A stretch of 64,000 bases of DNA from an uncultured Alphaproteobacteria bacterium (GCA_944392785.1 CALXXW010000013.1:182201-246200), one strand, 5' to 3'. Counted from the stretch's first letter, positions 4,044 to 64,000 are shown. Translations and numbers: made by a program. Notes: generated from the letters alone by a model not told the origin.

Positions 4044-5231
4044 TTACCCTTTGCTTCGTTTATTTTGAACAGACGCCACCCATACCGGAGACAATGTCTT
4101 GCGGTCTGAATTGTTAGCCTCACTTAGACCACGCTTAGATTTTACCATCTTATCATGTTGAATGATTGTCGCTAATAATGGTTTTTTTTTAGACTCTTTC
4201 ACTAACGTTGCCATCAATTCTTTATTTTGAGAAAAAGCAATCAGAAGCTGATTTTTCAAGGATTCTTTTCCCTCGGCGACGACTTTATCCCCTTCGCTTG
4301 TCCATGTGTAAACGGCACGGCTATCATTTTGCTGGTGTCTGAGCATATCAATCATGGCAAATATCTCCGCTATCGTTTCTATTGACCCATATGGAGAAAA
4401 AGGATCTTGGATAAGATATTGTTCCAAAACAGGCTCAACTATGGCATGCGTATCATGCTCCATATAACCAACCTTTTTGTAGTTCTTCTGCTGTGCTTTT
4501 TGGGAAAAACCAATGCCGGAAAATGTAAAAATATCCTTTAGCCCATCCATAACAAAATGACTGGTTTCACCCACGAAATTATTTTTATTTCGAAAGGCGT
4601 GCGAAACTTCGGGGACAAAATCAGAAACATCATTAATGTATATATGTCCTCGACCGCCGGGAGAATAATTAGAGCGCCGGTGATTTAACAAGCTGGCTGT
4701 CCAAGAGTTGTCATCTTTCGTGTATGAGATTCTCGGGTTGCCCGAAGCATCCAATATGTCGTAAATCCGTCCCTGTATATCTTCTTTTTCTCCACTCGCC
4801 AACGGATTAGTGGATAAATACTCTGCGGCATCTGCTATGATTTTTTGCTCATACTCTGTATAGGGATTATCTTTGGGTAATTGCGTATCCTTGGATTTGG
4901 CGGAAATTTTTTCTTGAGCCGCCATAACATCGCCATAGTTAAAATTCCTTTTACCGTCTTGCGTGATTAAACCTAATGTTTTCATAACGTACAACATATC
5001 GGGATGAACTCGAGTTTTTTGTTTTTGAAGCACCGTATAGGCTTGGAAAAAGCTTGGCTCCTCATGGGTATCCCTTTCAACCTGTGTCGCAACCGAGGCG
5101 TCCGATTCTGTTTCTGTAGCCGTTTCCGCACGAGCCTCTGTTCCAGCCAATCCCGCTGTCAGACCGGCTGTCAAAGCTGCCGCCTGAACCGTCTTTTGAA
5201 CCGATTTTTTTAATTTATCTTGTAATCCCAT
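4044..5231 (-). CDS. hypothetical secreted protein (cysteine-free, about 395 aa)
   Basis: The ATG at 5231 is preceded by GGAG. An N-terminal Sec-type signal (AALTAGLTAGLAGTEARA|E) is present. No recognisable domain and no Cys residues. Confidence 0.55.
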   Translation of the reverse strand: MGLQDKLKKSVQKTVQAAALTAGLTAGLAGTEARAETATETESDASVATQVERDTHEEPSFFQAYTVLQKQKTRVHPDMLYVMKTLGLITQDGKRNFNYGDVMAAQEKISAKSKDTQLPKDNPYTEYEQKIIADAAEYLSTNPLASGEKEDIQGRIYDILDASGNPRISYTKDDNSWTASLLNHRRSNYSPGGRGHIYINDVSDFVPEVSHAFRNKNNFVGETSHFVMDGLKDIFTFSGIGFSQKAQQKNYKKVGYMEHDTHAIVEPVLEQYLIQDPFSPYGSIETIAEIFAMIDMLRHQQNDSRAVYTWTSEGDKVVAEGKESLKNQLLIAFSQNKELMATLVKESKKKPLLATIIQHDKMVKSKRGLSEANNSDRKTLSPVWVASVQNKRSKG

Positions 5232-5435
5232 AACATTCTCCAATATCTTTCAAAGAAGGGTAAAATCTACTTTGCATAGTATAGCTATCTTTTTCTAATT
5301 CGTCAAATGGCAATACCAACCATCAAACACAAGACGGAAATCCTACACGAGATGGTGTTATAGGATATTGACCCGAGCACCAAAATGATATATCATGCTG
5401 AAGTGTAGGCATCACACGTCATTAAGGAGTAAAAA

Positions 5436-6287
5436 ATGCAACAACAGAATTGGCATGATATTATTTCGCAATTTGCCTCGGGACAGCAAAGAGTTTTAAG
5501 CGTTTTTAGGGAACTGGTCAAGACCTATCCTACAAGTAAAAGGCAGGAAGCTCTGCAATTAATGGAAGAAACAGCGGATGAAATGGAGCATCATGGATAT
5601 CACTCTTACCCTTATCACAATGATTTGAAGGAGGGATTAAGGAAACTGTTTGGACTATCTTCGCATACAGCGGAGGCTTTGATGATGAGCTATCAACTGG
5701 CAACACCAGCCACTCGCACAAAATTGAAAAAAGAGATGGAAAAAGGGTCTGATACACGGGCCTTTTCACCCTCTTTTTTGCGTCATACACCATCCATTAT
5801 ACATCGTGCCATTCTGAGAAACAAATTAAATCAATATGCAAATAAAATTCCTTCTTTGGGCAAACAAATTTTACGGATACAAACGCCTCCCGGAAGAGAA
5901 CTGACTTATCAGGATATAAATAGTCATCATCCTTTATGTGCGACATTTTTTCGTCTGGCACAGCTATCCTCGGACAAAAGACAACAAGTCATTCAACTTA
6001 TTCTTAACAGTCAACAGCTTACTCACCTATCGGATATTGACCGAGGTGTCTCCTATTTAGCGTTAAAATTATTACCATTCTTAACATCTGCTCAGCAGCC
6101 GACAAAACATTTACCGCAACAAAATGAACAAGCAGAAAACATAAAACAAACCTATAATACCGTGAAGGTTTTCGGATGGTGTTTGTTGACTCAAAATCCC
6201 TATGATCAAGATAGATGGATTAAATTAATGGAAATGAAGCCTCAAAACCAATTTATCGCGCGAGATTATGACTTTCAACATTGCTAG
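5436..6287 (+). CDS. hypothetical cytoplasmic protein
   Basis: 283-aa ORF divergent from the previous gene, followed by a terminator. No recognisable domain. Confidence 0.5.
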   Translation: MQQQNWHDIISQFASGQQRVLSVFRELVKTYPTSKRQEALQLMEETADEMEHHGYHSYPYHNDLKEGLRKLFGLSSHTAEALMMSYQLATPATRTKLKKEMEKGSDTRAFSPSFLRHTPSIIHRAILRNKLNQYANKIPSLGKQILRIQTPPGRELTYQDINSHHPLCATFFRLAQLSSDKRQQVIQLILNSQQLTHLSDIDRGVSYLALKLLPFLTSAQQPTKHLPQQNEQAENIKQTYNTVKVFGWCLLTQNPYDQDRWIKLMEMKPQNQFIARDYDFQHC

Positions 6288-11474: not shown

Positions 11475-12014
11475 CTAAAGTCCCAACAAAGCACCGACAA
11501 CGCCGGCACCCAAAATATAAACCATCGGATTGAGTTTGAACATTAAGGAAATACCCAGACATCCCAAAAAAACAAGCACCGCACGCACATCGAAAGAAAC
11601 AACGTTATTTTTTGTAAAAACCAACAGGATAAAAGAGCAAAACACACCTATCATCAATCCGGCAACAGCGGCTTTAACTCCCGCAAAAACAGATATCGTC
11701 ACGGGATGCTCCTTTAATTTCGGCAGGACTTGCGACAGTAAAATAATCATCAAGATAGAAGGGGTAATAATTCCTAACGTTGCCGTTATAGCGGCCGGGA
11801 TTCCGGCTAACACGAACCCCGTATATGTGGCCATATTGACACCAAGAGCACCCGGCGTCATCTCAGCCAAGGCAACGATATTAGCCACATCAGCCGCCTG
11901 AATAACGGGATAAATCGTTGTCAATTCTTGCAAAAAAGGAATGATGGCCATACCACCGCCCATGACAAAAGCTCCCATATAGAAAAAACGCAAAAATAAA
12001 GCCAGATAAATCAT
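11475..12014 (-). CDS. chrA: chromate transporter ChrA-family half protein (SCHR)
   Basis: About 180-aa polytopic membrane protein with CHR-domain motifs (GGGMAIIP, GPGALG-like). The start ATG overlaps the upstream partner's stop as ATGA. Confidence 0.75.
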   Translation of the reverse strand: MIYLALFLRFFYMGAFVMGGGMAIIPFLQELTTIYPVIQAADVANIVALAEMTPGALGVNMATYTGFVLAGIPAAITATLGIITPSILMIILLSQVLPKLKEHPVTISVFAGVKAAVAGLMIGVFCSFILLVFTKNNVVSFDVRAVLVFLGCLGISLMFKLNPMVYILGAGVVGALLGL

Positions 12015-12550
12015 CTTAATTCTCTTTTCAATACAATCAGGTGCAAAGCCCCCAACATACCGGCTCCCACAATCGCCCAAATAGGAGATATCCCCAAAAC
12101 GTATAGCATAAATGTCGCACAAGCAATCAACCCCGTCAATAAGGAGGAAGCCGACGCTTTAATCAGTCGAGCGGCCATGGTCAAAATCAAAACAGCCGCG
12201 CCTATTCGAATACCGATCAAGGCGCTCATCATGAAGGGATGGTCGACCATTTGCTGCACAAAATGAGCCAATAGAATAATAACAACAACTGCCGGCAGTA
12301 TCAATCCCAGGGTTGCGATAACCGCCCCCCACGCTCCGGCACGTTTATACCCGATGAACGCCGTCAAATTAACGGATATAATACCGGGCAAACTTTGGCT
12401 TAAGGCATAATACTCGGACAATTCCTCCGCTTTCAGCCATTTTTTGCGAACGACACACCAGTCATACAAAAAAGCCATAATGGTATATCCGCCCCCAAAA
12501 GCAAACAAACCGATTTTGACACACGTATAAAACAAATCCCAATAAATCAT
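12011..12550 (-). CDS. chrA: chromate transporter ChrA-family half protein (SCHR)
   Basis: 179-aa membrane protein with the CHR motif FGGGYTIMAF. Forms a translationally coupled two-gene short-chain CHR pair. Confidence 0.75.
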   Translation of the reverse strand: MIYWDLFYTCVKIGLFAFGGGYTIMAFLYDWCVVRKKWLKAEELSEYYALSQSLPGIISVNLTAFIGYKRAGAWGAVIATLGLILPAVVVIILLAHFVQQMVDHPFMMSALIGIRIGAAVLILTMAARLIKASASSLLTGLIACATFMLYVLGISPIWAIVGAGMLGALHLIVLKRELR

Positions 12551-12695: not shown

Positions 12696-14090
12696 ATGCT
12701 CTATTGGGGATTATTTTTATCTTTTGCCATATCTGTTCTGATTTATGCGTTTTATCCGTTCGGAGATAAGTTAAATGTCGAACGCCATCAAGCCGAAGCT
12801 TTAATCACAGCTTTTATCAATCAACACCAGGCCGCCAAAAATTATCTGGTACATGCGTTGCGGCTGCCGCCTCTCAACAACACCGGCATTGATGAAGGCT
12901 CCGAAGGTGTTGCCCTCTTTCCTCAAGAGCTGGATGATTTTATTCCGCCTTACATGGAAAGTGATCTATATCAGATTCAGGATAATAACGGAGAATTAAG
13001 AACGGCGTTGAATCCCGATCCGCAGAACAGCAACTATGTCGGAGGGGCTTTTTCCTCGGCTTTGATTTGTGTGAAACGCGATGACAGTAGCTTATCGCTC
13101 ATTCCGGATTACCACCTGACAAGTTGCCTAGACGGCTTGGCAGATCACCAATATATCATTACATACGGAGCTCGCCCCGAATGGTGGGACAATCAGACAT
13201 CCATCGAAATGAAAGGAACTTGGCGACATGCTGTTGCACGTATGACACATAATGCACCTAATTGCGGCACATTATTACATGATCCTAAAAACGGACAAAA
13301 AAACGGAGAACCCGTTTATTCTTTGGATAACGGGTATCGTATTTCGGTTGATATTGTCAACCCTCTGGTCACCCAAACACTTAAAAAAGCCGGTGTAAGC
13401 GGTGATTACATACATGACGATCTGATTGATTTATTCTTTTGCATTTCAGCCTATGGCGATCTTTATGTCCCGGGCGCTCTGTATCACTATGATGCAAACA
13501 GTAATACCCGAGAAGGATACAGTGAAACAGCCTCCCGTTGGACAAACTTGGGAACTGTTGGCGGAACATTATCGGCCCGTGTCGATAAACAGGGTTTACA
13601 ACCGACCTCCCGCCTAGATACGGGAATAACACTTAACCCCTATACAAACTATACCTTGACTCTGGTCATGCGCACAACGGATACACAAAACAACAAAACA
13701 TTAACCAGTGGTTTTCCAATCTTAACGACCGACAATCAGACGGATTTATACATTGCCGGACAGACAATTAACATGACCACGGCATCCTCTCGCCGAAACG
13801 ATATGGTGTCCATAACCTATGTCAATGACATAACAACGGGAGAAGGACGTCTCTATGTCAACGGGGAACCGGTTAAAACATTGACGGGAACAGAGCGAAC
13901 GGCTATCAGCGGGACTCTGTTCTTAGAGGCAACGAACACGCGCTTCTTCAACATCAAGTATTATGACACCGTTTTAGAAGAAGACTTTGTCTGGCAGAAT
14001 TATAAATGGGACAAACGCCGCTACAACATTCGCTTTAAAAATAAACGTAAAGTGGAGTATATTCACCGCAATCCCAATGACAAAGCTTAA
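12696..14090 (+). CDS. hypothetical membrane-anchored protein with C-terminal concanavalin-A/LamG-like lectin domain
   Basis: 464 aa. A 22-aa N-terminal hydrophobic segment is followed by an amphipathic, pilin-like helix. The C-terminal beta-rich region carries RLYVNGEPV and GTLFLEA motifs typical of LamG jelly-rolls. Confidence 0.6.
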   Translation: MLYWGLFLSFAISVLIYAFYPFGDKLNVERHQAEALITAFINQHQAAKNYLVHALRLPPLNNTGIDEGSEGVALFPQELDDFIPPYMESDLYQIQDNNGELRTALNPDPQNSNYVGGAFSSALICVKRDDSSLSLIPDYHLTSCLDGLADHQYIITYGARPEWWDNQTSIEMKGTWRHAVARMTHNAPNCGTLLHDPKNGQKNGEPVYSLDNGYRISVDIVNPLVTQTLKKAGVSGDYIHDDLIDLFFCISAYGDLYVPGALYHYDANSNTREGYSETASRWTNLGTVGGTLSARVDKQGLQPTSRLDTGITLNPYTNYTLTLVMRTTDTQNNKTLTSGFPILTTDNQTDLYIAGQTINMTTASSRRNDMVSITYVNDITTGEGRLYVNGEPVKTLTGTERTAISGTLFLEATNTRFFNIKYYDTVLEEDFVWQNYKWDKRRYNIRFKNKRKVEYIHRNPNDKA

Positions 14091-14149
14091 GTTGGGTTGA
14101 AAAAAATAATGACCTATCGTATAATCAAGAAATAAGGAGACGATACAAA

Positions 14150-16111
14150 ATGATAAGAGATACAAATGAGCGCGGAGCAATCATGCTAGAGGTTATTGCC
14201 GTCTTGGCTTTAATTGGCGCAATGGGAACCCTGCTTTTTCGTCAAGTGTTGATGCGCAATCAAGAAGTCGACAATGTTAATATGGCAACCGAAGCACGTA
14301 TCATGAAGGAAAGTACTTTGGCCTATATTCAGGCTGATCGCGCTCTTTTACTTCAAAATACGACCTTAAATCCTCCTGACGGAAACGGGGGTTGTATCGT
14401 TCCCAACCAAGATGACGTTGCCGCCTTTATCCCGGACGGATATGTTGAGCTCAATTCGAGCGATCAATTCGAAGGCATTATAGATTACTACAACATCACG
14501 CTCTGTTCGTATAAGCCAACAGATGAAACGGAACCCGTTATGTATGGAATCATCGTTCCCAAAGCAGAACTCTTACCCTCGGAAATGAACCTAAAACGCG
14601 CTTCACGCGTGGCTGCTCTGATCGGATCGGGTGGTGGTGTTTGGCCCAGTCAAAACGAAGAACTCAGCGGAACGATGGGAGGCTGGCATTTACCGCCGGA
14701 TGGTCTGACTTATCCCGGCACTCCGACGTTTGTCGCTATTACGGGAATGGATATTTTTGTACCGGAACCGGAAAATTTACAGCAGTTAACAACGCTTAAA
14801 TTACAGCTGGATGATGATGCCAAGTTCACAAATTTACATGCCTCTGATTTCTTGTCCGTGGGCGCGGCAACCAATAATTGTTTTCGCAATGTGGGGACCG
14901 TCGATAAGCCCGAGTATGAAATCTTGCGCCCGGGGCAACGCAACAGCGATACAGGAGATATTTGTGATCCTCTCTTTTGGGTGGGAACGGTCGGAGCAAA
15001 CACAACCGAAGACCACTCAATACACGGACATGTCTATGCGAAACAAAACATGTATATCGGGCGAAAAAATCAAGCCAATATCCACGCTATTGCCTTAGAA
15101 AATGAAACGGCTAAAGGCGGACGCATTACCGTTTTTGATGATACAGGACGACAACGTTTGGTTATTGATGGCTCCGGCCGTCTGTTGGGCGGTATAGCCG
15201 CTAACACATCCGATATAGAAGATGACAGAAATGCCACTTTGATTCTAAAGCCCGGTAATTTACAGGATAACCTCAGTAAAGAATCCGCCAGTTTGACATT
15301 GCGCAGTTCAGATGAACAGGATGATTTGGAAATCAAAGACGGTCGCATTGTTGTGGCTCGTCAAACGCCCGATAAACTGGCCGAAAGTGCCACAACATCC
15401 TATCAACTGGATCCGGCCCATACATCGGTTGTCAACGAAATTCGGTTGGCTGCTCGAGGCGGTGCTCGTCTGAGCGATTTATTACCCAATTACATTTCTA
15501 AAACTATGGAAGCCATCACATCCAGCGGAACGGGTGCGTATTCCGAGCACACTCAAGCCGTCCCGACCTGTCCGAAAGGATATACGGCAGCCCTTATGGT
15601 CACACCGACACGTTGGGACACATCTCGTTTATCCGAGATTGATATTTCACATCAACGACGTTTAAATATCGATAATTTCTTTGTCAATGCTCCCGCAGAC
15701 GGAGGAACGGCTTATTTAAAGCGGCAGTCTGATGATAATAATGACCTGATAGATGAAGAAATCATCATCAAAAAAGAAGATAAGCGAGCCGATGACACAA
15801 CGCCCAAAATCAAAATGGAAAAAGCGCGCCTGGCTATTATGATTGATGAGGAAGATCCTCAAAACACGGCCGCTTTGGATACACAAAAGACCGGCTCTTC
15901 TTGGACCATTCGAATGGGTTATGTTGATGATAACAACCAATGGAGCGGCTCGGTGCAAGACACCATATCCGCCGTTGTTCAAACTTTCTGTGTCTATGAT
16001 CCGACCGCACATGAAGGAAATGCCAATCGCATTCCTTGTCCGGAACGTAAGACCGGTAGCCTTTGTCCCGCCGGCTGTCATGAAGATAACGGCATTTGCT
16101 ATAAGGATTAA
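14150..16111 (+). CDS. large type IV pilin-like protein (prepilin-type N-terminal cleavage/methylation motif)
   Basis: 653 aa with an AAGGAGA RBS. The leader MIRDTNERG is followed by AIMLEVIAVLALIGAMGTLLF (G at -1, E at +5). The C-terminus has a Cys-rich disulfide region. Confidence 0.6.
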   Translation: MIRDTNERGAIMLEVIAVLALIGAMGTLLFRQVLMRNQEVDNVNMATEARIMKESTLAYIQADRALLLQNTTLNPPDGNGGCIVPNQDDVAAFIPDGYVELNSSDQFEGIIDYYNITLCSYKPTDETEPVMYGIIVPKAELLPSEMNLKRASRVAALIGSGGGVWPSQNEELSGTMGGWHLPPDGLTYPGTPTFVAITGMDIFVPEPENLQQLTTLKLQLDDDAKFTNLHASDFLSVGAATNNCFRNVGTVDKPEYEILRPGQRNSDTGDICDPLFWVGTVGANTTEDHSIHGHVYAKQNMYIGRKNQANIHAIALENETAKGGRITVFDDTGRQRLVIDGSGRLLGGIAANTSDIEDDRNATLILKPGNLQDNLSKESASLTLRSSDEQDDLEIKDGRIVVARQTPDKLAESATTSYQLDPAHTSVVNEIRLAARGGARLSDLLPNYISKTMEAITSSGTGAYSEHTQAVPTCPKGYTAALMVTPTRWDTSRLSEIDISHQRRLNIDNFFVNAPADGGTAYLKRQSDDNNDLIDEEIIIKKEDKRADDTTPKIKMEKARLAIMIDEEDPQNTAALDTQKTGSSWTIRMGYVDDNNQWSGSVQDTISAVVQTFCVYDPTAHEGNANRIPCPERKTGSLCPAGCHEDNGICYKD

Positions 16112-16129: not shown

Positions 16130-16160
16130 TAAAAAGCCACATAATGTGTGGCTTTTTTAT
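16130..16160. terminator. bidirectional terminator between the pilin-like operon and prfC
   Basis: Hairpin AAAGCCACA-taat-GTGTGGCTTT flanked by A- and T-runs. Confidence 0.65.
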
Positions 16161-21736: not shown

Positions 21737-22534
21737 ATGACGATAAAGTCTTTTTTAAAAACCATTGTACCCGTCGGTGTTATGACAGGCTCTGTTTTTC
21801 TGAGTGGTTGTCATCGGGGAGATAAGTCTTACTCGGATGTTGTCAAACCCTCTCAGAAAGCACCATCGACTTTACTTGCCGTTAATACCCAGGCAGAAAT
21901 AGAGGTGGCACGTACCGAGGCTATCTATAAAGCCATCCAAAAGATTGAGGGCGCATTCATTTCTTATTTACCCTTTCCATCGGCAGACGGAAAAATTCGT
22001 GTCGGTTTTGGTGTCCCTATTTCAGAGGAAGCTTTTTTAAAAACACAATTCTATCAACAAACAAAGAAGGGCGCGCTCCCCTATCCTCTGGCAGACAATC
22101 CCATTTTGCTCAATCAATTAAAAACAAAGGGGCAAACGGGAAAAATCCGTTTGCGTGATAAGGAAATTCGCCAACTGACAAAAGCATGGATATCTGAAAC
22201 TTACCCTCAAATCAAACAGACGCTCCCTTGCCTTGATCAACTGCCGATTTCAACGCTTGCCGCAATTATGTTGCTGGAGATGAACAGTGATTCTATACAC
22301 ATACCTGCCTCACCTTTGAGGGACTTGGCGCAAGGGGGGGTGGATTTAGAGAAAAAACTAGAAGTTTTTTTACCGGCTCAACTCTCTCCCAACGACGATG
22401 TGATTCCTCTTCCCTCTTCAAGTCGCTCTCCGAAAGTCTTCGAAAAAGCGCTTGTCACTATTTTGCGGCACAATAAAATACCGCATGTACCCCCTCAATA
22501 CATTCCCAGGCAAGTCCCGGACAATCAACGTTAA
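21737..22534 (+). CDS. lipoprotein with phage-lysozyme (GH24)-like N-terminal motif, paralog 1
   Basis: Signal peptide with lipobox LSGC. EG-x4-Y-x5-DGKIRVGFG and AAIMLLEM resemble T4 lysozyme EG...Y.D.EG..TIGIG and ALINMVFQMG. Confidence 0.5.
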   Translation: MTIKSFLKTIVPVGVMTGSVFLSGCHRGDKSYSDVVKPSQKAPSTLLAVNTQAEIEVARTEAIYKAIQKIEGAFISYLPFPSADGKIRVGFGVPISEEAFLKTQFYQQTKKGALPYPLADNPILLNQLKTKGQTGKIRLRDKEIRQLTKAWISETYPQIKQTLPCLDQLPISTLAAIMLLEMNSDSIHIPASPLRDLAQGGVDLEKKLEVFLPAQLSPNDDVIPLPSSSRSPKVFEKALVTILRHNKIPHVPPQYIPRQVPDNQR

Positions 22535-22546
22535 GGAGGCGAATTT

Positions 22547-23314
22547 ATGTCATTAAAATCTAAAATCAAAACATTTTTACCTATCGGTTTATTGGCTGCA
22601 ACAACGGCCTGGACGGCACAAAACTATCTTCAGACAGACTCTGCTTCACAGAACGAGTCCATAACGGCCCATCAATACCCTCCTGTCATTGAAACGCTTT
22701 ACCAAGAAATCTGTCAAATGCCCGAGGCCTTTATATCAACACATCCTTATGTAGACAGAAACAATGTGTTGCGTGTTGGATTTGGAACTCCCCTGGAAGA
22801 AGAGGAAATCAACGTGACTCATTTTTACCACGAGACTCCCCAAGGCGTACGCCCCTACCCTCAAAAAGAAAATTGGCAACTTGTCGACCATTTATATAAA
22901 AATGGGCAATCGGCCGATATTTTCATTCCCCGAGAGGAAATTGAACTTCTGACCAAACGTTGGCTGCATAAAAACTATGAAAAGCTTCAAAAGATATTAC
23001 CTGAAATAGGACAATTTTCACCGTCTAAACAAGCGGCACTGATGTTGTTGGAGATGACAGAACAATCCATCACGCGCGATGGCACTTTTATCGGCCTTTT
23101 TAAAAAAGCTCTTAAAACGGATCATTACATGGGGTTAGTAGCTTACATACATTTGTCACCTCGCATACATATGGTGCAGGGAAAGGAACAACTGTTGGTC
23201 TCGTCAAAAACCGACTCGTTGGAAACGGCTTTAATTATGCGTCTGACACAGCCGAATCAAGCGCATGCAGCTTTGACAAATCAACTGGCAATCAAGCAAC
23301 AAAACTCTCGATAG
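22547..23314 (+). CDS. secreted protein with phage-lysozyme (GH24)-like motif, paralog 2
   Basis: Tandem paralog sharing the EAFIS...RVGFG.P.EE...FY..T..G..PYP and AALMLLEM blocks with the upstream gene. Confidence 0.5.
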   Translation: MSLKSKIKTFLPIGLLAATTAWTAQNYLQTDSASQNESITAHQYPPVIETLYQEICQMPEAFISTHPYVDRNNVLRVGFGTPLEEEEINVTHFYHETPQGVRPYPQKENWQLVDHLYKNGQSADIFIPREEIELLTKRWLHKNYEKLQKILPEIGQFSPSKQAALMLLEMTEQSITRDGTFIGLFKKALKTDHYMGLVAYIHLSPRIHMVQGKEQLLVSSKTDSLETALIMRLTQPNQAHAALTNQLAIKQQNSR

Positions 23315-43455: not shown

Positions 43456-43467
<12 letters not shown>

Positions 43468-44562
43468 ACTTTCCCGGCTAAAAATATCCCGGATAATGAT
43501 ATTAACCCACGCATCAACGTTAAATGCAACATGGTGATTGGGGGCGTTTTGAATGAAATCGGATAAACAGGTCTGGTACTGGTGATATACCTCGTCCGGC
43601 ATCTGCTTGAGATAAACATATAAAGCCTCTTCGCTTTCAAAATCCGCTCGATTGATAAAACAGCCCTGAGGTATGTAGTTAGAGACATCCGGAGCCCCTA
43701 AATAAACCGGCACAGCGCCTGTTTCTATACCATCGATGATTTTTTCAGAAACATATCCCGAATGAATGGCATTTTCATATGCCAGAAAAAACTTCGTATG
43801 ACGCATGACATCTGATTTAGAGGCGATATATCCTTTATAAACGGTTTGAAAATTTTTCACCCCTTGGGGAGACAGTTCATTCTTTAATCGCTCCCAACCA
43901 CGACCATAAAGAGCAAAATCCTCCGGATGATTTTCAATCAAATACTTGGCTGTTTGACGACGTGCCTGATAGTTAGATTTATTATTATAGTGATTCGATA
44001 ATACCATTGAAATCAGGGTTTTGTTTGCGTGAGCTGCAGAGTCTGTTTCTGATATTATTTTATCTTGTTTTCGAAGGGGATGAGGTATCGGCAACCAAGC
44101 ATAAATACCCTCCCCTGCAATATTATTTTTTTTAATTAAATCAGTATCATATGTCCAGATACGTTTAAATGTCTTAACCGCCTGCTCTTGCGTAAAAGAG
44201 GGCCAGGAAAAGGGCGTCTCAAGTAAATACAAATATACGGGTTTTCCCGGAGGAAGATTTTTGGGGCATTTAGAAACACAGAAAACCAGATCACTTTGTT
44301 CAGAAGAGTATACTTGCTGTGTTTGCAACAGATAACCATGCCTTAAAAAAGCTTTTTGAAGAGCCGACCAAAAGGGGCTACTAAAAATATCTTGAGCTCC
44401 ATCTCGCCAAGAAAACAATAAAGCTTTTTTGAGCGGCCCCCGAGGCGGTATATCCGACAACAACCGAGCCGTTTCAAGCTCCATGACAAAACAAAAGCCT
44501 AACCATACCCAAAGCAATAGAAGAATACCGCACATAACATGCCATAACGATTTATTTTTCAT
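43456..44562 (-). CDS. glycosyltransferase family 10 (alpha-1,3-fucosyltransferase-like), N-terminal membrane anchor
   Basis: HTKFFLAYENAIHSGYVSEKIIDGIETGAVPVYLG matches the FxLxFENSxxxxYVTEKxxD...P(V/I)YxG signature of GT10 fucosyltransferases. One N-terminal TM helix. Confidence 0.65.
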
Positions 44563-63407: not shown

Positions 63408-64000
63408 TTAGGAGCATTTCTTTGTCCTGGCATCCCATCTCCCATGACACGATTTGCACTTCTCTTGGGTATTTAAACTGCTGGAACTTAAACTTGTCGG
63501 ACATCTATAACAATAGCTTCCATTCATATACCGTGGTGTGCCACTCTTATCACACTTGGCACATTCGGCCTCCGTCGCTTCATAGCCATATGAAGTGCTG
63601 CAGCTGCGGCAAGAGCCATCAGAACTCAAAAGTCCATCAGGACAATATCCTGGTAGAATACAATAACCGTTTCTCATCTCGCGTGGGGTGCTGCTCTTAT
63701 CACACTTGGAACATTCGGCTTCTGTCGCTGAAACGCCAGAATAATAGCTGCAGCTGTAGCACCCGCCAGAATCACTCAAAAATCCATCAGGACAATAGCC
63801 TGGTATAATACAAAACCCGTTTCTCATCTCGCGATTCAAACACTTGGCACATTCGGCCGCGGTCGCTGAAGGGCTAGATGAATCGCTGCAGCCCCAGCAA
63901 GCGCCAGAGGTATCCTGGAACTGATTCGCTCCACAGTTAATTAACCCACAATAGTCACCAAACATTTTGCGGGGAGTGCTACTGGCATCACACTGGGCAC
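63408..64000 (-). CDS. secreted-type cysteine-rich tandem-repeat protein, 5' partial (continues beyond the window end)
   Basis: At least three ~45-aa repeats (ATEAEC-KCDKS-TPREMRNGYC-PGYCPDG-C-SCS). The frame remains open and repeat-like (QCDASSTPRK) up to base 64000. Confidence 0.55.
   Translation of the reverse strand, partial: AQCDASSTPRKMFGDYCGLINCGANQFQDTSGACWGCSDSSSPSATAAECAKCLNREMRNGFCIIPGYCPDGFLSDSGGCYSCSYYSGVSATEAECSKCDKSSTPREMRNGYCILPGYCPDGLLSSDGSCRSCSTSYGYEATEAECAKCDKSGTPRYMNGSYCYRCPTSLSSSSLNTQEKCKSCHGRWDARTKKCS

Follow-up and report, generated by a model that had tools for sequence, protein, structure and literature searches.

A pair of adjacent genes, here called P1 and P2, was analyzed in a 64,000-nucleotide stretch of DNA (the window) from an uncultured alphaproteobacterium (GCA_944392785.1 CALXXW010000013.1:182201-246200). 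We propose that P2 is the tip pilin of a type IVb pilus whose machinery is encoded elsewhere in the genome, and that P1 is a co-inherited, lectin-bearing partner at the adhesive tip, a reading to which we assign a probability of about 0.55. Both open reading frames (ORFs) are real, with the borders and lengths given in the original prediction, which had been made from the sequence of the window (Table 1). The suggestion made there, of a tip adhesin relying on machinery encoded elsewhere, holds for P2, a giant pilin-like protein and probably a tip adhesin, but the pair does not consist of two prepilins, as P1 lacks the features of a class III signal.

The N-terminal signal and predicted fold of P2

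The N-terminus of P2 comprises the leader MIRDTNERG followed by AIMLEVIAVLALIGAMGTLLF, in which AIMLE, with Glu14 at position +5 from the predicted cleavage site, precedes a 21-residue hydrophobic stretch. In an alignment of ~88 full-length homologs sharing only 31-40% identity, Gly9 (-1) and Glu14 (+5) are invariant and the following helix is strongly conserved; the same two residues are also kept in distant relatives of ~1000 residues. Such invariance, over sequences of just 30-38% identity and extending to the ~1000-residue relatives, is hard to explain without constraints imposed by a prepilin peptidase and by assembly. A regular expression for class III signals, applied to all six frames of the window, matched P2 as the sole ORF, and profile-profile alignment (hhalign) relates the P2 signal to that of a second pilin family of the lineage (G followed by RSMVEMLGVLAIIGVLS; probability 95%, E 2.5e-8).

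The +1 position of the signal is occupied by Ala or Ser instead of Phe or Met, and the net charge of the leader is about 0; the signal is therefore divergent rather than canonical. Of the "canonical class III signal" that had been predicted, Gly-1, Glu+5, and the hydrophobic helix stand, but the term canonical does not, given these two deviations and the failure of the N_methyl and TIGR02532 models described below. The lone signal model to match P2 was ComGG (NF041014), with an E value of 0.02, which is under the model's cutoff. A Tad/Flp pseudopilin (TadE/F/G) reading, considered for the N-terminal pattern ERG[SA]xxxE, was rejected, there being no TadE or Tad_N Pfam match and the machinery of the lineage being of type IVb. 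The description of P2 as giant is borne out: its length exceeds that of a normal pilin 4-5 times, and its relatives reach ~1260 residues.

An AlphaFold2 model of P2, computed from the 88-sequence alignment (mean predicted local distance difference test score [pLDDT] 68, predicted template modeling score 0.36), has a predicted helix at residues 3-62 (~60 residues) packed on an alpha/beta domain, with strands to residue 197 and a pLDDT of ~90. The predicted structure thus contains the long alpha1 helix on an antiparallel beta-sheet that defines the pilin fold. Past residue ~200 the model continues with a beta-rich middle domain, a low-confidence stretch at 349-445, and a confident C-terminal beta-sandwich. 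When the model was compared with the Protein Data Bank (PDB) using Foldseek, the Vibrio cholerae minor pilin TcpB came out on top, the entry for its C-terminal half having a probability of 0.94; two structure-search methods independently placed TcpB first, with CofB among the neighbors, at modest scores.

Type IVb minor pilins start assembly at the pilus tip, where the tip-most subunit needs no Glu5, and TcpB initiates both assembly and retraction (PMC5207764). CofB carries a C-terminal H-type lectin domain and acts as a trimeric initiator at the pilus tip, where it anchors the secreted protein CofJ (PMC6048534). The predicted fold of P2 is like those of TcpB, from the V. cholerae toxin-coregulated pilus (TCP), and of CofB/LngB, from the CFA/III and Longus pili of enterotoxigenic Escherichia coli (ETEC), with no detectable sequence similarity. 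P2 differs from TcpB and CofB in being larger (653 residues), with extra low-confidence insertions and a Cys-rich tail. The TcpB and CofB genes are part of the pilus operon and adjoin the major pilin gene, whereas P2 is encoded at a distance from the machinery and has housekeeping genes as its neighbors. Those systems employ a Sec-secreted protein, CofJ or TcpF, where P2 has the membrane-anchored partner P1, and their hosts are enteric gammaproteobacterial pathogens, in contrast to the uncultured commensal alphaproteobacterium that carries P2. To judge from the model and from this analogy, P2 is probably built and works like a type IVb minor pilin, yet constitutes a sequence family of its own. 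The TcpB/CofB model covers P2, so that the "new kind of surface display" put forward in the original prediction is unneeded.

Outside the signal, the most conserved stretch of P2 is LDPAxTSxMNDIRLxSRGGARLSDILPNYI (residues 418-449). It is, besides the N-terminus, the only part of P2 common to the ~1000-residue relatives, and AlphaFold confidence there is low. Distant loci align only with P2 residues ~395-497. The C-terminal tail behaves differently from what had been predicted, namely a Cys-rich end of the kind seen in pilins: it is variable or absent in homologs, with only Cys614 kept, and of 34 members examined five have tails with DUF7107-like Cys knots while others have no tail at all.

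P1, a co-inherited family without a leader

P1 is homologous to the product of the gene upstream of a P2 homolog of 36% identity (E 3e-35). Hidden Markov models (HMMs) built from the P1 and P2 alignments were run on 86 loci with a P2-family gene, and a P1 gene was found beside P2 in 74 of them (71 immediately upstream on the same strand, 2 immediately downstream, and 1 at 850 nt upstream); in 11 loci P1 is absent despite room for it. The carriers belong to >100 species, all of them represented by metagenome-assembled genomes of uncultured gut or rumen Alphaproteobacteria (human, sheep, yak, deer, buffalo, rabbit), and the genes occur in the context of chromosomal housekeeping genes. Adjacency to chrA recurs in the nearest clade (loci L003, L007, L008, and L121), and adjacency to prfC in some distant relatives. 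A horizontal or recent insertion of the two genes is rejected on the basis of the flat GC content across the P1-P2 region, which shows no anomaly, together with this conserved synteny; the pair had been predicted to be inserted between chrA and prfC, and is instead a conserved, lineage-wide chromosomal unit and not a mobile insertion. Contigs with P2 homologs from the Logan collection are often 29.5-30.4 kb long. One of them (L005, 29,680 nt) ends in an ordinary chromosomal context, and the recurrent length looks like a size limit of the source, not the size of a replicon.

A word-index search for P1 homologs gave 2 and then 13 sequences, a poor recall, and a profile search of a representative library as well as locally built HMMs were needed. 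In the library of 1.84 billion proteins the P1 family forms 364 clusters, nearly all matches beginning at residue 1; most members are a stand-alone N-module of 210-290 residues. The core of P1 matches no Pfam model and no PDB sequence.

Met1 of P1 is invariant in the family and is the first possible start codon, and a 20-residue hydrophobic segment follows it directly. Among 139 family members, Glu5 occurs in none and a GxxxxE pattern near the N-terminus in one; Arg22 and Asp24 are nearly invariant. A Lys or Arg within the first five residues is found in only 4 of the 139 (i.e. there is no basic n-region), and the same members have no conserved AxA or signal peptidase I site, positions 13 and 15 often being Tyr, Leu, Phe, Met, or Ile. 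The absence of a basic n-region, the 20-residue hydrophobic stretch, and the absence of AxA suggest an anchor rather than a cleavable signal. Cys counts in the 139 members are mostly 4, 6, or 8, and these even numbers point to an extracytoplasmic location. Taken from the sequences, these features agree with a signal anchor of N-in orientation that is followed by an extracytoplasmic domain with disulfide bonds. Profile-profile comparison of P1 with pilin families gave probabilities of 0.2% for the second pilin family and of 6.3-6.5% for the P2 family, which are not significant, and the term "pilin-like" is consequently lowered to a topological resemblance. The original prediction had applied that term to P1; an N-terminal hydrophobic helix is indeed present, but the leader, Gly-1, and Glu5 are missing. 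On sequence grounds P1 is no prepilin; it falls in a separate, uncharacterized family.

The prediction of a concanavalin A (ConA)/LamG-type domain at the C-terminus of P1 is upheld at the level of the family, the window protein itself being sub-threshold. Window P1 scores 17.1 bits with Laminin_G_3 (PF13385), under the 27.6-bit cutoff (E 0.0064), while 8 of 30 family members match this model at E<=0.01, the best with an E value of 5.9e-13. When compared with the PDB, the P1 family profile retrieved the HCN lectin-like domain of PMP1 and of tetanus toxin and the LamG-like entry 4qvs, at E values from 8.6e-8 to 6e-4, with values of 8.6e-8 and 1.4e-7 for the lectin-like HCN domain of clostridial neurotoxins and another LamG-like protein. 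The LamG part is an accessory that is missing from short family members, and the length of P1 varies from 220 to 616 residues through modular C-terminal additions such as LamG. Variable C-terminal modules, present in both P1 and P2, are as expected for surface-exposed parts.

Pilus machinery in the lineage and competing explanations

Type IVb machinery is encoded in relatives. At locus L050 a distance of ~1.3 kb separates a P1-like/P2-like pair from an operon for TcpQ, a lipoprotein secretin, PAP_PilO, T2SSE, and T2SSF together with a 472-residue pilin; at L058 the same type IVb operon is 440 nt from a P2-family gene; and at L100 P2-like and P1-like genes stand downstream of the ATPase region on the same strand. 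P1/P2 genes occur beside the type IVb operon only in L050/L051, L058, and L100. A metagenome scan using the pilus ATPase yielded 28 further loci with a compact six-gene operon, without pilin or peptidase genes, implying that to encode pilins away from the machinery is the rule in this lineage. The orphan character originally ascribed to the locus is thus real for the window but not for the lineage, where separation of pilins from the operon is the norm and where the adjacencies just described are found.

The second, independent class III signal family (G followed by RSMVEMLGVLAIIGVLS) is scattered over the chromosome, with members of 86-1015 residues (L050 1076-1477 and 13036-14454; L004 20244-21386; L020 17218-20265; L029 1745-3913; others). 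This size range implies modular pilins, and members of 133-147 residues may be the major pilin. One member lies directly after the T2SSF gene of the type IVb operon in L050. At L081 (16900-17925), a 341-residue ORF ~5 kb from a P2/P1 pair shows partial 41% identity to the pilus ATPase and may encode a PilT-like or VirB11-like ATPase. In eight metagenome loci, type IV secretion system (T4SS) genes are divergent from the type IVb operon and encode a VirB4/TrbE ATPase, a VirB3-like protein, and a TrbC/VirB2 pilin (L086 124-2862; L097 726-1494; also L096, L098, L104, L105, L108, and L113). A literature search on pili in this lineage returned nothing relevant.

Several results weigh against the proposal. 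Neither N_methyl (PF07963) nor TIGR02532 matched window P2 at E<=1 or any of 34 P2 family members at E<=0.01. The P2 family profile found no pilin match better than E=1 among all PDB sequences, TcpB and CofB included; with no sequence-level similarity to solved pilins, P2 is regarded as a separate sequence family. Pfam scans of ~45 ORFs of the window, in keeping with the prediction that no pilus machinery occurs in the 64 kb, revealed no T2SSE, T2SSF, secretin, or peptidase gene, and the 10 kb upstream of the window contain housekeeping genes only, with no machinery or peptidase. A prepilin peptidase was not matched in ~120 loci by regular expression only, a weak method that gives no proof of absence. 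Machinery adjoins P1/P2 in just 3-4 of ~115 loci, little above chance for 20-kb neighborhoods, and adjacency this rare provides weak statistical support only. For P1, a model from a 13-sequence alignment reached a pLDDT of 37, with a helix at residues 2-56 in that low-confidence model, and the role proposed for the protein rests on gene linkage and domain content.

In the mechanism that we favor, P2 would be made as a prepilin, with the hydrophobic alpha1-N inserting it in the inner membrane, and would be cut after Gly9 by prepilin peptidase. A type IVb machine encoded elsewhere in the genome (TcpQ lipoprotein, secretin, PilO, T2SSE ATPase, and T2SSF platform), of the kind whose operon is seen in relatives, would then take it up. 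By analogy with TcpB and CofB, P2 would nucleate assembly and end at the pilus tip, where its H-type-lectin-like beta-sandwich and variable Cys-rich tail would be exposed for binding. P1, presumably held in the membrane by its uncleaved N-terminal helix, would expose an extracytoplasmic module with disulfide bonds and, in the clade of the window, a LamG lectin domain as well. Association of P1 with P2 is most likely, and P1 may supply or tune the ligand specificity of the tip.

The placement of P1 is where the main competing explanations arise. A serious, if less probable, possibility is that P1 stays in the inner membrane and serves there as a dedicated chaperone or assembly factor, either holding, orienting, or trimerizing P2 at the platform ahead of pilus initiation or linking P2 to periplasmic glycan. 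Its uncleaved anchor, its lack of class III features and of detectable pilin homology (hhalign 6.3-6.5%), and the tight coupling of the two genes, as of a chaperone and its client, all suit this role, and the lectin appears dispensable because the stand-alone N-module of ~220-290 residues is the commonest form. Assembly factors are, however, usually constant in size, whereas P1 ranges from 220 to 616 residues with C-terminal additions typical of exposed adhesins; moreover, it is hard to see what a chaperone of the inner membrane would do with a lectin domain, and 11 of 86 P2 genes do without P1. It is doubtful, though conceivable, that P1 is a leaderless pilin-like cap, i.e. the tip-most type IVb subunit above the Glu5-positive P2, requiring no prepilin peptidase; with no leader to remove and no Glu5, P1 could enter the filament only as the first, tip-most subunit. 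Among tip minor pilins without Glu5 (GspHIJK of the type II secretion system and the PilX-type pilins of type IVa pili), GspK likewise combines a hydrophobic helix lacking Glu5 with a bulky extra domain. Unlike P1, which has neither a leader nor detectable pilin homology, GspK is made as a genuine prepilin: it has a leader and Gly-1, and the peptidase cuts it. Finally, P1 might be secreted cargo in the style of CofJ or TcpF, exported by Sec and docked through an N-terminal peptide in the lectin-like tip domain of a P2 trimer. Like the genes of CofJ and TcpF (PMC6048534), that of P1 accompanies a minor pilin gene, and the predicted tip domain of P2 is similar to the H-type lectin to which CofJ binds; a cargo role nevertheless seems highly improbable for a protein with next to no basic n-region (4/139), a 20-residue hydrophobic stretch, and no conserved AxA site.

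Two further explanations concern the system as a whole. The VirB2/3/4 genes beside the pilus operon in eight loci suggest an R64-type thin pilus serving the neighboring T4SS in conjugation, with P2, with or without P1, as a PilV-like tip adhesin for glycans of recipient cells rather than of host tissue. PilV of R64 (IncI1) is the tip adhesin of a type IVb pilus, and the lineage operon, accompanied by T4SS genes in those loci, is similar in content to that of R64, which encodes PilN (a lipoprotein secretin), PilO, PilQ, and a PilR-like protein and likewise accompanies a T4SS; the combination recalls the thin pilus plus conjugation system of the IncI1/R64 plasmid. We regard this explanation as unlikely. 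P1/P2 lie in housekeeping chromosomal contexts distant from the operon, and in loci from >100 species they are never beside T4SS genes; no shufflon, multiple C-terminal cassettes, or shufflon-like variable 3' segments were seen; and the best structural matches are TcpB and CofB, a PilV structure not being among the matches. It is very unlikely that P2 is not a filament subunit at all and bears an ordinary signal anchor resembling a class III signal, P1 and P2 then being periplasmic or surface proteins anchored in the membrane and unrelated to pili. Such a view would accommodate the failure of the N_methyl and TIGR02532 HMMs, the lack of machinery in the window, and the rarity of machinery adjacency, but not the invariance of Gly-1 and Glu+5 in divergent homologs and ~1000-residue relatives, the homology of the P2 signal with that of pilins in the type IVb operon, or the rank of TcpB as first in two independent structure searches.

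Gene layout, related systems, and significance

Upstream of the P1-P2 pair is a divergent pair of half-size chrA genes, and downstream is a convergent prfC gene (Table 1). The locus had been described as flanked by hairpin terminators. This is correct downstream, where a perfect 11-nt inverted repeat with A and T runs on its flanks is found, but incorrect upstream: an inverted-repeat search and reading of the sequence identified no terminator-like site between chrA and P1, the sole inverted repeat there being weak (9 nt), and the region is a divergent promoter region common to chrA and P1. The P1-P2 spacer is 59 nt long and contains a putative promoter-like site that scores 11/12 against the consensus, a consensus match only. 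The chrA genes (11475-12550, minus strand) are likewise two half-size genes in relatives (179 residues each in L003); the call for the downstream one (11475-12122) overlaps the upstream one by ~110 nt and is probably over-extended from a TTG start.

Table 1. Coordinates of P1, P2, and associated features in the window
Feature	Position (nt)	Strand	Remarks
P1	12696..14090	+	464 residues; uncleaved N-terminal hydrophobic anchor, Cys-containing N-module, LamG-like C-terminal domain
P1 residues 1-56	12696..12863	+	hydrophobic from Met1 (MLYWGLFLSFAISVLIYAFY), then amphipathic helix (AEALITAFINQHQAAKNY); no leader, Gly-1, or Glu5
P1 N-module (~residues 1-261)	12696..13478	+	family core; four conserved Cys (C125, C144, C190, C249) and His44
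P1 predicted C-terminal ConA/LamG-type jelly-roll (~residues 262-446)	13479..14033	+	motifs RLYVNGEPV and YKWDKRRYNI; accessory module
P2	14150..16111	+	653 residues; modular type IV pilin-like protein; probable type IVb minor pilin architecture
P2 leader peptide MIRDTNERG	14150..14176	+	predicted prepilin peptidase cut after Gly9
P2 pilin module (mature N-terminus to ~residue 200)	14177..14749	+	alpha1 with Glu+5 (E14), hydrophobic alpha1-N, then alpha/beta globular domain
P2 middle beta-rich domain (~residues 240-348)	14867..15193	+	conserved C244, C272, and CDPLFWV motif; pLDDT 70-83
P2 conserved motif Y418...LDPAHTSVVNEIRLAARGGARLSDLLPNYI (residues 418-449)	15401..15496	+	invariant S426, L433, R436, G438, L441, S442, L445
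P2 C-terminal beta-sandwich domain (~residues 445-620)	15482..16009	+	low-confidence insertions; likeness to TcpB C-terminal half and H-type lectins
P2 Cys-rich tail (residues 614-653)	15989..16108	+	five Cys; variable across family, Cys614 alone conserved
Divergent intergenic region, chrA (minus strand)/P1	12551..12695		GAGG ribosome-binding site 5 nt before P1 ATG
P1-P2 spacer signals	14097..14140	+	promoter-like TTGAAA-17-TATAAT at 14097-14125; putative AAGGAG ribosome-binding site at 14135-14140
Bidirectional intrinsic terminator hairpin AAAAAGCCACA-taatg-TGTGGCTTTTTT	16131..16158		common to P2 (+) and prfC (-)

The Pfam-scanned ORFs of the window have housekeeping functions only. Five sizeable ORFs without a Pfam match at E<=0.001, none with a class III signal, lie at 4044-5243 (-), 5436-6287 (+), 21737-22534 (+), 22547-23314 (+), and 63408-63965 (-). 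A GT10-family fucosyltransferase gene at 43456-44562 (-) may be relevant to host-like glycan display.

Large or modular pilins are a known and widespread theme, in which the pilin module acts as a carrier for a binding module that it presents, probably at the pilus tip (PMC8179133). In Streptococcus sanguinis, PilB (with a von Willebrand A module) and PilC (with a ConA-like lectin module) resemble the present system in that a binding module is displayed by a pilin and that a ConA/LamG-type lectin is involved; the PilC lectin is fused to the pilin itself, whereas here LamG is on the separate, leaderless P1 and not on P2. As large modular pilins are known, and as TcpB and CofB give a functional template, P2 is not categorically new. 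Three elements are new: a family of pilins, from an uncultured gut lineage, that no current signature detects (neither P1 nor P2 matches a signature, and both would escape searches of the InterPro type); the consistent placement of pilin genes apart from the machinery operon in that lineage; and, above all, the co-inherited, leaderless, lectin-bearing partner family of P1.

Type IVb pili are key colonization factors of enteric pathogens, in which a single large minor pilin (TcpB, CofB) governs initiation, retraction, secretion, and adhesion. The present analysis probably extends the type IVb minor pilin architecture to widespread uncultured gut and rumen Alphaproteobacteria. It also brings out a partner whose N-terminus looks like that of a processed pilin yet has no leader. 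If P1 is a component of the filament, the rule that type IV filaments are built only from prepilins would change; were it the leaderless cap considered above, it would be a new class of type IV filament subunit, with >360 unannotated clusters, and its swappable module (e.g. the LamG lectin) would sit at the very end of a type IVb pilus. If P1 is not a filament component, it would still be a new accessory factor for tip pilins and a candidate for setting the host or glycan specificity of a gut bacterium about which little is known.

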